Virus record (IMG/VR): IMGVR_UViG_2690315808_000002
Direction: 5' to 3' (one strand)
DNA from: a virus
Lineage: Duplodnaviria > Heunggongvirae > Uroviricota > Caudoviricetes
DNA length: 14,412 nucleotides
Position 1 is the stretch's first letter; the number at the start of each line of letters is the position of its first letter. The translations under genes were made by a program, and so were the position numbers. Under the pieces are notes generated by a model that ran no database searches, was not told the DNA's origin, and saw only the letters and a list, made by a program, of their open reading frames with translations. Positions 3,391-7,510 of this stretch are shown here, piece after piece.

Positions 3391-3529
3391 CTATTCTCTC
3401 CACTGAAATCATCCGCTAACGAATCATCCCGGTCTTCGTACGTACCGGGCGGGCTACTTCGTGGGCGTCCTGCCTGTTTGTTGTTTCTCTTGGGTACATT
3501 ATGTATCTCAAAGGTACATTGTCAAGTAT

Positions 3530-3552
3530 AAAAAAACCTGCCGAAGCAGGTT
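3530..3552 (-). terminator. Rho-independent terminator just downstream of the repressor gene
   Basis: Stem ACCTGC / GCAGGT (3536-3541 / 3546-3551) with CGAA loop; on the minus-strand transcript it is followed by a U-run (A-run 3530-3536 on the + strand); 13 bp past the cohE stop. Confidence 0.55.
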
Positions 3553-3564
3553 CATAAACATTGA

Positions 3565-4239
3565 TTAGGCTTTGATTTTGTATCTTCTTGGTTTTCCTGA
3601 GAAAATCACAGTACCAATTATAGAGCAATTACCGTTGATCTTAATGTAAGGCTCAGGCCAGTTTGGGTTTAACGCTTTGAGATAACGCTGTGTCCCATCT
3701 TCTATCAACCTTTTGAAGGTGGTTTCACCTGTATCGTGCATCAATGCAATAACGTCGTCACCGTGGCAGGCAGGTACTTCAGGATCGACAAAAATCATGT
3801 CTCCCGGGCGGTACTCATCAATCATTGAATCACCTATTACCCGCAAGATATAAGTCATTTCCCCACAGGGTACAGGGCAGGGATACGTTTCTGCTGTGCT
3901 CAAATCAACCTCAGAATATCCAACTTCTTTCCATGCTCCGGCCTGTACCCATGATATGACAGGGACTAATGTGATTTGTTTATTAGTGATTGAAACATCA
4001 GGTTTTTTTGTGATGTTCGTTGTCTGGTGTTCTTGATCGAGCCATCCTACAGGCAGGTCGAAACATTTTTCGATGTGTCGTGCCATGCTGTCACCGATAT
4101 TTTTAGTAGCACCATCTCCCATAAACCTGCTGGTCTGGGTTGGCTCGCGATCAATCATAGTGGCAAAGGAAGAATTCCCGCCAACACCATCTCTCAGTTT
4201 TCTGGCGTTAGACCGCCGGATGTCATGGATTGTTTTCAT
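3565..4239 (-). CDS. cohE: CI-like prophage repressor with LexA/S24 autopeptidase domain
   Basis: 224 aa; C-terminal S24 peptidase signature (GDSM serine, downstream KRL lysine) and a candidate Ala-Gly cleavage site (VQAGAW); divergent from a Cro-like gene. Confidence 0.9.
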   Translation of the reverse strand: MKTIHDIRRSNARKLRDGVGGNSSFATMIDREPTQTSRFMGDGATKNIGDSMARHIEKCFDLPVGWLDQEHQTTNITKKPDVSITNKQITLVPVISWVQAGAWKEVGYSEVDLSTAETYPCPVPCGEMTYILRVIGDSMIDEYRPGDMIFVDPEVPACHGDDVIALMHDTGETTFKRLIEDGTQRYLKALNPNWPEPYIKINGNCSIIGTVIFSGKPRRYKIKA

Positions 4240-4329
4240 AACGAAATTAAAACCCTTGTACCGTTAAGGTACAAGTATCTTGAAGGTTCATTTCAATCAT
4301 GTAATATGTACACCGGAGGTACATATTGT
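4240..4329. promoter_or_regulatory. Divergent immunity control region (OR-like) between repressor and cro
   Basis: Perfect 21-bp palindrome CTTGTACC-GTTAA-GGTACAAG at 4255-4275 and related site ATGTACACCGGAGGTACAT at 4306-4324 (both TGTAC-N7-GTACA); candidate rightward promoter TTGAAG (4280-4285), 16-bp spacer, TAATAT (4302-4307); GGAGG 11 nt before the cro ATG. Confidence 0.6.
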
Positions 4330-4530
4330 ATGAAAGCGTATTGGGACTCTTTAACCAAAGAACAGCAGGGCGAGTTGGCCGGAAAAGTTGGCTCAACACC
4401 TGGCTACTTACGGCTGGTTTTCAATGGCTATAAAAAAGCCAGTTTTGTGCTGGCTAAAAAACTTGAGCAATACACATCAGGTGCAATTACGAAATCTGAC
4501 TTAAGACCGGATATCTATCCGAAAGATTAG
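4330..4530 (+). CDS. croE: Cro-like HTH regulator, 66 aa
   Basis: Internal ATG at 4330 of the longer ORF-track frame 4027..4530 (the upstream part is antisense to the repressor gene); small HTH-like protein divergent from the CI-like repressor. Confidence 0.75.
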   Translation: MKAYWDSLTKEQQGELAGKVGSTPGYLRLVFNGYKKASFVLAKKLEQYTSGAITKSDLRPDIYPKD

Positions 4531-4561
4531 CAGAACACTTTCAATTTTTAACCACAGAACG

Positions 4562-5131
4562 ATGAGGCTAATCGTGGGTAAGCATCACTGGAAAATAGAA
4601 AAACAGCCTGAGTGGTACGTGAAAGCTGTCAGAAAAACTATCGCGGCGTTGCCGAGTGGTTACGCTGAAGCGGCTGACTGGCTCGATGTAACAGAAAACG
4701 CTTTATTCAACCGCCTTCGTGCAGATGGCGATCAGATTTTCCCGCTGGGATGGGCAATGGTTTTACAGCGTGCTGGTGGCACTCACTTCATTGCTGATGC
4801 TGTGGCGCAGTCTGCAAATGGCGTCTTTGTGTCTCTTCCTGACGTCGAGGATGTGGACAACGCCGATATTAACCAGCGTCTGCTGGAAGTCATTGAACAG
4901 ATCGGCAGTTATTCAAAACAGATTCGTTCAGCAATCGAAGACGGTGTAGTGGAACCGCATGAGAAGACAGCAATTAACGACGAGCTGTATCTCTCAATTT
5001 CGAAGCTGCAGGAGCATGCAGCACTTGTCTACAAAATTTTTTGCATTTCAGAAAGTAATGACGCCCGCGAGTGTGCAGCTCCGGGCGTCGTGGCGTCGAT
5101 TGCTTCTGGTTGTGGAGAAACTAACGCATGA
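4562..5131 (+). CDS. ymfL: Putative early regulatory protein (possibly CII/CP76-like), 189 aa
   Basis: Intact ORF directly after cro; family assignment is from memory, no motif confirmed. An alternative GTG start at 4574 has a better-spaced GAGG. Confidence 0.55.
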
Positions 5132-5466
5132 ACAGTTTAACAACACACTACCGTCGCTCGCAACTGATTGCGCTTCCTGTACCGGGTGGAAAAGCGAAGG
5201 TGGAATATTGCTATGCAGTGAATGTACCAGGTGACAGGGAAATTGTAACCCACAGCTTTGCAGAGTGGGCTGTGGGTGATTTCAACCGGCAGAAGGAGAC
5301 AGTCCTTTGCGACAAGTTAACCGCTGGTTCAAAGATCACTACGGAGTGCCCGTCAGAGTCATTCGTTGGGAGCCGGAAACACAACGGGTTATCTACCTCC
5401 GCGAAGGTTATGAGCATGAATGCTTCAGCCCGCTCGAACAGTTTCGTCGTAAATTCAGGGAAATAG
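5128..5466 (+). CDS. ymfM: Hypothetical protein, 112-codon ORF; probably a frameshifted remnant
   Basis: ORF overlaps ymfL stop by 4 nt; from about 5280 a different frame carries a 68-codon protein-like stretch with no start codon that ends at 5486 (see finding). Confidence 0.45.
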
Positions 5467-5475
5467 AGGTCGGTC

Positions 5476-6843
5476 ATGAGCACTAAATTAACCGGCTATG
5501 TATGGGATGGTTGCGCTGCATCAGGCATGAAGTTATCCAGCGTGGCAATTATGGCCCGCCTGGCTGATTTCAGTAATGACGAAGGTGTGTGCTGGCCATC
5601 AATTGAAACCATTGCCCGTCAGATTGGCGCGGGGATGAGTACCGTCAGAACGGCTATCGCACGGCTGGAAGCAGAAGGCTGGTTAACGCGTAAGGCGCGT
5701 CGCCAGGGTGATGGTTCATCACCCCACTGTGCCGTGGTGGATGAATATCACGAGCACGCCACAGATGCGCTTTACACCACGATGCTTACCGGGATGGGGG
5801 CGCGACGCCAGCCACTGATGTGGGCCATTACCACCGCCGGGTACAACATTGAGGGGCCGTGCTACGACAAACGGCGGGAAGTCATCGAGATGCTCAACGG
5901 CTCGGTGCCAAACGATGAACTGTTCGGGATCATCTATACCGTTGATGAAGGTGACGACTGGACCGACCCGCAGGTGCTGGAAAAAGCCAATCCAAATATT
6001 GGCGTGTCGGTTTATCGCGAATTTTTGTTAAGTCAGCAGCAGCGTGCGAAAAATAACGCCCGTCTGGCAAACGTCTTTAAAACAAAACACCTCAATATCT
6101 GGGCGTCGGCGCGTTCGGCGTATTTCAACCTGGTGAGCTGGCAGAGCTGCGAGGATAAATCACTGACCCTTGAGCAGTTCGAGGGGCAGCCGTGCATTCT
6201 GGCCTTTGACCTGGCGCGTAAGCTGGATATGAACAGCATGGCGCGACTTTATACCCGCGAGATTGACGGTAAAACGCATTACTACAGTGTGGCCCCGCGT
6301 TTCTGGGTACCGTATGACACGGTGTACAGCGTCGAGAAAAATGAAGATCGCCGGACAGCCGAACGCTTTCAGAAATGGGTGGAAATGGGCGTTCTGACCG
6401 TTACCGATGGTGCGGAGGTGGATTATCGCTACATCCTCGAAGAGGCCAAAGCGGCGAACAAAATCAGCCCGGTCAGTGAGTCACCCATCGACCCCTTCGG
6501 GGCGACCGGGCTGTCACATGACCTTGCTGATGAAGACCTGAACCCCGTCACCATCATTCAGAACTACACCAACATGTCCGATCCGATGAAAGAGCTGGAA
6601 GCGGCGATTGAATCGGGGCGCTTTCATCATGACGGCAATCCCATCATGACCTGGTGTATCGGCAACGTGGTCGGCAAAACCATTCCGGGTAACGATGATG
6701 TGGTGAAGCCCGTCAAGGAGCAGGCGGAAAACAAAATCGATGGTGCAGTTGCGCTGATTATGGCGGTTGGCAGAGCCATGCTGTACGAGAAAGAAGACAC
6801 GCTGTCTGATCACATTGAGTCCTACGGGATCCGCTCGCTTTAA
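5476..6843 (+). CDS. oweE: Deletion fusion: replication-initiator N-terminal HTH domain joined to the C-terminal two-thirds of a terminase large subunit
   Basis: 455 aa. First ~80 aa resemble a phage replication-protein winged-helix N-terminus ([30 protein letters not shown]); the rest resembles terminase large subunit from about the Walker B region (VVDEYHEH) through the nuclease domain; no Walker A P-loop is apparent. Confidence 0.8.
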
Positions 6844-6854
6844 CTGAGGTAATT

Positions 6855-7037
6855 ATGATCATGCTGATTCTCGCGCCTCTGGTGGGCGTGCTGGGTGCGC
6901 TTTTGCTGGCGTATGGTGCCTGGCTGATTTATCCCCCGGCGGGTTTTGTTGTTGCCGGGGCGCTGTGCCTGTTCTGGTCGTGGCTGGTGGCGCGATATCT
7001 CGACCGTACACAGTCGTCTGTCGGCGGAGGTAAATAG
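6855..7037 (+). CDS. ymfR: Small predicted membrane protein, 60 aa
   Basis: Hydrophobic 60-aa ORF with GAGG a few nt upstream of the ATG; sits between terminase and portal remnants. Confidence 0.5.
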
Positions 7038-7510
7038 TGTTCTTTTCGGGATTATTTCAACGAAAAAGTGACGCACCGGTGACCACGCCAGCAGAGCTGG
7101 CGGATGCCATCGGGCTGTCGTATGACACCTATACCGGAAAGCAGATCAGCAGTCAGCGGGCTATGCGACTGACGGCGGTTTTTTCCTGCGTCAGAGTGCT
7201 GGCAGAGTCGGTCGGGATGTTGCCCTGCAATCTGTATCACCTGAACGGCAGCCTGAAGCAGAGAGCCACCGGCGAACGTCTGCATAAACTGATCTCCACG
7301 CATCCCAATGGCTATATGACGCCGCAGGAGTTCTGGGAGCTGGTGGTCACCTGTCTGTGCCTGAGGGGAAACTTTTACGCCTACAAAGTGAAAGCATTTG
7401 GCGAAGTGGCTGAACTGCTGCCCGTCGATCCCGGCTGTGTGGTATATGCGCTGGGAAGGTGTCAGCGATGGCCTGAAGGTGACCGCCGGGAGTGTTATTC
7501 AGCGCGATGA
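7037..7510 (+). pseudogene. beeE: Portal protein N-terminal fragment (HK97-family-like) running into unrelated sequence
   Basis: GTG start at 7037 with GGAGG 7 nt upstream; first ~130 aa resemble portal N-termini (AVFSCVRVLAESVGMLP, HPNGYMTPQEFWELVV, RGNFYAYKV); the frame then continues over the start of the baseplate fragment and stops. Confidence 0.7.

Follow-up and report, generated by a model that had tools for sequence, protein, structure and literature searches.

The locus raises two linked questions, namely how a single open reading frame came to join the beginning of a phage replication initiator to the end of a phage terminase, and whether the resulting protein has been kept for a function. 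The window (the whole stretch of DNA analysed here, 14,412 nucleotides) is the cryptic and defective prophage e14 of Escherichia coli K-12. A megablast search of 5,426 complete E. coli genomes matched positions 5000-7200 to E. coli K-12 MG1655 with 100% identity over the full length, and the window was base-for-base equal to the K-12 record NZ_CP032667.1 except for the orientation of one invertible segment. The gene order is lit, intE, xisE, ymfH-J, ymfK, ymfT, ymfL, the 455-codon ORF, ymfR, a portal fragment, a baseplate J fragment, ymfQ, tail fibre genes, pinE, mcrA and icd'. The invertible P segment (window 9091-10928), which adjoins pinE and carries 21-bp inverted repeats at 9091-9111 and 10908-10928, lay in the opposite orientation to that in NZ_CP032667.1, the rest of the sequence being identical; it is the known Pin-mediated tail-fibre switch.

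The ORF has an ATG start and 455 codons plus a stop on the + strand, exactly at positions 5476-6843, where the first-pass annotation had located it (ORF list and translation). It is the same gene as ymfN/oweE/aaaE of the MG1655 e14, with sequence, position relative to the neighbours and junction all identical. In NC_000913.3 the product of b1149 is named 'chimeric replication protein/phage terminase YmfN', and ymfN is divided into the pseudogenes oweE (b4692; nt 1-234) and aaaE (b4693; nt 232-1368), which overlap by 3 bases. The chimera is already described in the RefSeq annotation and the literature, and as a case of ordinary prophage decay it is already known; its primary description, referred to in a citing paper, is said to be that of Mehta, Casjens and Krishnaswamy (2004, BMC Microbiol 4:4). 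Several papers, bioRxiv 2020.11.19.390815 among them, mention that ymfN was re-annotated as oweE and aaaE. To this the present analysis adds the exact size of the deletion (9,554 bp) and its content relative to the intact prophage of E. coli S88, as well as an out-of-frame second e14 junction that served as a control and the occurrence of the junction in three non-K-12 isolates.

The features are listed below in window coordinates, with the evidence for each in brackets.

4330-5466, + strand: early-right genes ymfT, ymfL and ymfM, upstream of ymfN in one operon (annotation)
5476-6843, + strand: ymfN (b1149), the chimeric ORF, stop codon included (ORF list, translation, NC_000913.3 annotation)
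5476-5709, + strand: oweE part, codons 1-78 of a lambda-O-like initiator, with a complete HTH_36 winged helix (match to the AF16 gene, Pfam, PHROGs)
5707-5709, + strand: deletion junction, a GGT codon found in both parents, 3-bp microhomology (three-way nucleotide comparison, S88 BLAST blocks, oweE/aaaE overlap)
5707-6843, + strand: aaaE part, codons 200-577 of an HK97/SfV-type terminase large subunit (TerL), with an ATPase remnant (Walker B, C-motif), nuclease and C-terminal tail (S88 TerL alignment, Pfam, phage matches)
5728-5745, + strand: Walker B CAVVDE, YmfN residues 85-90 (motif search, aligned to AILDE of the HK97 TerL 6Z6D)
5911-6783, + strand: TerL nuclease domain, YmfN residues 146-436 (Pfam PF20441)

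Two parent genes meeting at one codon

The N-terminal part proved to be a replication-protein-like winged helix, as had been proposed from the letters alone. Pfam HTH_36 matched YmfN residues 23-70 (E 7e-11, profile positions 8-55 of 55), and PHROGs families phrog_11896 (E 2e-49) and phrog_391, 'replication initiation O-like' (E 5e-31), were recovered with residues 1-81, these initiator matches spanning only profile positions 1-81 of 225-298. Residues 1-78 were identical to those of the intact 313-aa initiator of E. coli AF16 at 78 of 78 positions, and 232 of the 234 nucleotides were the same. With the lambda-O-like HTH_36 initiators (WP_123872962.1 / WP_000104933.1, 313 aa), ymfN has in common the start codon and the upstream ymfL and DUF4222/ymfM genes, as well as, at the sequence level, the N-terminal winged-helix DNA-binding domain. 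In contrast to those proteins, YmfN lacks residues 79-313, and with them the C-terminal domain, which in lambda O recruits the helicase loader.

Past the breakpoint, codons 97-137 of the intact initiator gene contain a tandem array made up of 4-6 copies of a 15-bp repeat (TCTGACCCGTCAAAA). The origin iterons of lambda sit inside gene O, and by analogy this array probably represents the iterons of the phage origin. It is missing from ymfN; a search of the whole window returned 0 matches at up to 3 mismatches, and an iteron array was found neither in nor beside the gene in e14. In AF16 the array lies at 12765-12887 of the extracted locus, shows internal dyad symmetry and encodes a repetitive SDPSKSDASKS linker.

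The C-terminal part belonged to a large terminase of the HK97/SfV type. YmfN residues 78-455 and residues 200-577 of the intact 577-aa TerL of S88 were identical at 376 of 378 positions, and identity over this region was 93-99.5% across the HK97/SfV-type TerLs (S88 WP_000088150.1; SfIV, SfI, SfII, SfV and ST64B). PHROGs assigned residues 76-447 to the terminase large subunit family phrog_9 (E 2e-132). Pfam TerL_nuclease (PF20441) covered residues 146-436 almost from end to end (E 2.8e-34, 119 bits with a cut-off of 24, profile positions 4-284 of 286), and only the last third of TerL_ATPase (PF03354) was matched, at residues 78-134 (profile positions 118-174 of 178). The RNase-H-like nuclease domain is complete in sequence, and the earlier description of it as intact agrees with the two residues in 378 that differ from the intact terminase. 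The nuclease motifs AFDLA (YmfN residues 243-247), IDPFG (338-342) and KIDGAV (420-425) carry conserved acidic residues.

In an alignment of the intact TerL with the structure of the HK97 large terminase, 6Z6D (E 5e-25), RKNGKT of 6Z6D was matched by RKNGKS at residues 117-122 of the intact protein, a Walker A that precedes the breakpoint at residue 200. The terminase sequence in e14 begins at this breakpoint residue, 7 residues ahead of Walker B, in line with the first-pass statement that the terminase body begins around Walker B and that the P-loop is absent; no Walker A was found in a motif search over the full length of YmfN. The only GK[ST] strings, both GKT, at residues 265 and 400, were considered as a P-loop in disguise and discarded, both being part of the nuclease domain and present at equivalent positions in the intact terminase. 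The Walker B (hhhhDE) and the coupling C-motif (ITTAG, YmfN 118-122, aligned to ISTQA of the HK97 TerL) were kept. YmfN therefore shares Walker B, C-motif and the full nuclease domain with the HK97/SfV-type TerLs, but has a foreign N-terminus in place of their first 199 residues, Walker A included. Its gene context also differs from theirs, since the adjoining small terminase and HNH genes are missing upstream of ymfN, with ymfL and ymfM there instead, and the portal gene downstream is a truncated 136-codon fragment; the intact context is present in S88. Specific cutting by HK97-type terminases depends on both a small terminase and an HNH partner protein.

The domain searches returned two unrelated families abutting near residue 78 (Pfam, PHROGs) where a single native family might have covered the full length, and the best phage matches (vB_EcoM-689R6, SfIV, SfI, SfII, SfV and ST64B) all began at that residue. 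Among the 5,426 E. coli genomes, left-only DNA (window 5000-5709) matched within intact 942-nt initiator genes, and right-only DNA (from 5707) within intact 1,734-nt terminase genes. Compared base by base, the ORF follows the initiator through ...CGC CAG GGT and the terminase from GGT GAT GGT... onwards, the shared GGT being initiator codon 78 and terminase codon 200, in frame in both parents. The BLAST blocks obtained with the S88 prophage overlap by exactly 3 nt, at window 5707-5709, and neither filler DNA nor an IS remnant was seen at the junction in the nucleotide comparison. Because both GGT codons are in frame, the frame that opens at the initiator start codon now encodes a chimera of 455 aa. 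The proposal that the frame had been preserved was thus borne out; the junction was placed, by alignment to the intact parents, at residue 78, slightly N-terminal of the residues 80-90 that had been guessed.

The deleted DNA and a second e14 deletion

An intact relative of e14 is carried by E. coli S88, with the same ymfK repressor protein, ymfT, ymfL, DUF4222 gene and initiator, followed downstream by terminase, ymfR, portal, head and tail genes, baseplate J, ymfQ and tail fibre genes. BLAST comparison of the window with this prophage gave three collinear blocks of 96-98% identity, with about 98% on either side of the ymfN junction.

Block 1: window 3415-5709, S88 locus (reverse complement) 7837-10124
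Block 2: window 5707-7444, S88 locus (reverse complement) 19676-21413
Block 3: window 7441-9111, S88 locus (reverse complement) 34073-35743

Between the ymfN breakpoints S88 has 9,554 bp. This DNA begins with initiator codons 79-313 and the genes for a PerC/YfdN-like regulator, a Dam-type N6-adenine methylase, a LexA-family protein and RusA, continues with those for a KilA-N protein, DUF968 and antiterminator Q and with the lysis genes (holin, endolysin and lysis protein), and ends with an HNH endonuclease, a P27-type small terminase and terminase codons 1-199; small ORFs are also present. The first-pass annotation had attributed to one deletion the loss of the rest of the replication module, the late regulators, the lysis cassette, the small terminase and the terminase N-terminus. 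The S88 content matches that list; a single event is the parsimonious reading of it and is not proven.

In a second e14 deletion (window 7037-8228), a 4-bp microhomology (window 7441-7444) marks the join between the 136-codon portal fragment (beeE) and a baseplate J fragment (jayE); in S88 the two points are separated by 12,663 bp, occupied by head and tail genes. This junction is out of frame: the portal frame ends at the stop at 7510, and the baseplate frame is a different one. Because the second junction is out of frame, the in-frame join in ymfN needs no selection; one in-frame join out of two is expected by chance, and the preserved frame looks like chance.

Distribution, variation and expression of ymfN

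A 47-nt probe (window 5685-5731), which matches only across the ymfN junction, was searched against the 5,426 complete E. coli genomes and was found in 284, always with 100% identity. Among the matches listed the carriers were nearly all K-12 laboratory derivatives, as judged from strain name or genome size, and three were isolates of one Indonesian farm study (BS-01, HS-01 and HS-02, with genomes of about 4.5 Mb), HS-01 being a partial case. With a probe from the diverged allele, the junction records of BS-01 and HS-02 were not K-12-like. In HS-01 the DNA from icd to 5 nt before the ymfN junction is gone, the N-terminal part included, and a GC-rich stretch adjoins; the BS-01 remnant lacks lit to ymfT as well as mcrA. 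The second e14 junction was also present in the three farm isolates, indicating, as both junctions occur in all of them, that the doubly deleted element predates their divergence.

All three diverged alleles that keep the ORF (K-12, BS-01 and HS-02) have it whole, uninterrupted by any stop or indel across its 1,368 nt; relative to K-12 there are 31 nucleotide differences in BS-01 and 28 in HS-02. This intactness, seen next to frameshifts in nearby fragments of one allele, is among the points that favour co-option, even though the sample is small. Under co-option the winged helix would target the nuclease or DNA-binding module to specific sites, giving a regulator or a site-directed nuclease that might act, for instance, in inducing e14, in killing the cell or in defending it against related phages; the complete HTH_36 and the complete nuclease domain kept in YmfN also speak for it. 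We consider this improbable. The iteron-like array bound by such initiators is missing from e14, and the small terminase and HNH genes, the partners for specific cutting, were both deleted. The junction element, moreover, was limited, among the matches listed from the 5,426 genomes, to K-12 derivatives and three isolates of one farm study, one of which (HS-01) lacks the N-terminal part.

The substitution pattern was weighed in the same light. Between K-12 and BS-01 the terminase part had 30 synonymous and 1 nonsynonymous codon differences, and the dead portal and baseplate J fragments had 19 synonymous and 7 nonsynonymous ones (p = 4e-7 against a neutral 25% synonymous). Selection on the chimera, as suggested by the 30:1 ratio, was rejected, given that the same bias (19:7) is found in the dead fragments and is not peculiar to ymfN. 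The terminase part was the more synonymous-biased of the two (Fisher p = 0.018), which counts against decay, but the difference would equally be expected if terminase was under tighter constraint than baseplate J in the donor phages. The e14 interior is about 2.8% diverged (2-3% across the farm isolates), the chromosomal flank being 99.8% identical. Since the bias is mirrored in dead fragments, the variation arose in functional phage genes and most likely entered e14 by recombination with intact relatives, and variation made in this way is uninformative on selection acting on the chimera. No differences were found within 230 nt to the left and 55 nt to the right of the ymfN junction, which fits the recombination view, since a tract donated by an intact phage cannot extend across the join.

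Several neighbours of ymfN in HS-02 are annotated as frameshifted (ymfH, the portal fragment, tfaP, a tail protein gene and pinE). Compared with K-12, HS-02 had 22 gap events in 10.4 kb, none of them in ymfN and 16 within the 540 nt just downstream. Selection against indels was examined on this basis and rejected, as the expectation for ymfN falls below 1 once the clustered events are set aside and the deficit is not significant. The HS-02 ymfR (locus ~7262-7423; window 6873-7007) carries 11 of these 16 clustered events, small deletions totalling 15 nt, a multiple of three, and is probably a divergent allele, not a product of random decay or assembly error. No evidence of selection acting on the chimera was found.

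Regarding expression, ymfN keeps the native initiator start, 10 nt past the ymfM stop. No consensus-like promoter site was found upstream of 5476, and a promoter of its own was therefore rejected. The preceding ymfM (5128-5466, 112 aa) is annotated as 'cell division inhibitor' in NC_000913.3; other records (PGAP) show a DUF4222 ORF (5307-5486, 59 aa) that overlaps ymfM in a different frame and whose 3' end overlaps the ymfN start. Lying in the early-right operon (ymfT-ymfL-ymfM-ymfN), ymfN is transcribed upon derepression of e14, for example by DNA damage, and a protein can then be made. The published evidence of YmfN expression that we found is at the transcript level. Expression of ymfN was highest under norfloxacin, and the same expression-network study gave YmfN a predicted regulatory role, one motif being predicted as common to the upstream regions of its inferred targets and of co-expressed operons (PMC1764438). 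The transcript was 3.4-fold up in an rpoZ mutant (PMC5811629), and a table in a 2025 Reg-Seq preprint has ymfN under the heading 'YmfT imodulon' with other e14 genes (PMC12132413). Transcription under DNA damage and the predicted motif again favour co-option; against it stands the finding that ymfM, and not oweE/ymfN, was responsible for the filamentation seen with a ymfL-ymfM-ymfN fragment (bioRxiv 2020.11.19.390815). That selection maintains YmfN specifically as a winged-helix-tethered terminase nuclease or DNA-binding regulator, made when DNA damage derepresses e14, is judged quite improbable. The RefSeq protein accession given to the chimera (YP_009518764.1) was likewise counted against decay.

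Origin and significance of the chimera

It is highly probable that ymfN arose, through a microhomology deletion, in the decay of a formerly complete temperate phage of the SfV/S88 type, and that it was most likely left without a selected function. The head of this ancestor would have been HK97-like and its tail Mu-like. A single illegitimate recombination, at GGT, would have fused initiator codon 78 to terminase codon 200 and excised about 9.55 kb. With that DNA would have gone the remainder of the initiator together with the probable iteron origin, the Nin-like genes, the late regulators and the lysis cassette; the same excision would have taken the HNH endonuclease, the small terminase and the 5' third of the terminase gene with Walker A. 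The gene still lies in the early-right operon, and its product would consist of a winged helix deprived of its iteron targets, an ATPase fragment unable to bind ATP and a nuclease domain lacking its partners. Such a protein would be capable of neither replication initiation nor DNA packaging, and most likely it has no selected function.

Several successive rearrangements could have led to the same gene. Phage genomes are mosaic, so the intervening region of the ancestor may have differed from that of S88, and AF16 has the same initiator gene beside a different late region and terminase. Both halves of ymfN are nevertheless 98-100% identical to separate intact genes of an S88 prophage collinear with e14, and the junction holds no filler DNA or IS remnant. 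A two-step route through a nearby 7-bp match (GGTAACC, found in both parents) followed by a 9-nt slip, the hypothetical intermediate junction of which would read ...CAGGGTAACCCCGGTGAT..., is conceivable and less parsimonious. A multi-step origin, or else a native single-family architecture, is thus very improbable; the latter is refuted by the separate intact parent genes in S88 and by the fact that the fused initiator-terminase architecture, with its two Pfam/PHROG families abutting at residue 78, occurred in none of 50,697 phage records.

An activity of the chimeric protein is conceivable, although nothing in the evidence calls for it. Apart from its value for good annotation, ymfN matters little in itself. 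For e14, one 9.55-kb deletion removed the probable origin together with the late regulator Q, the genes for lysis and for the small terminase, and the ATP-binding site of the large terminase, and a second one, of 12.66 kb, took the head and tail genes; as a result of the two, e14 can excise but cannot replicate, lyse or package. For defective prophages in general, ymfN is a clean example of how they form: microhomology-mediated internal deletions can leave in-frame chimeric ORFs, and such ORFs, even when intact and with strongly synonymous-biased variation, need not be functional.
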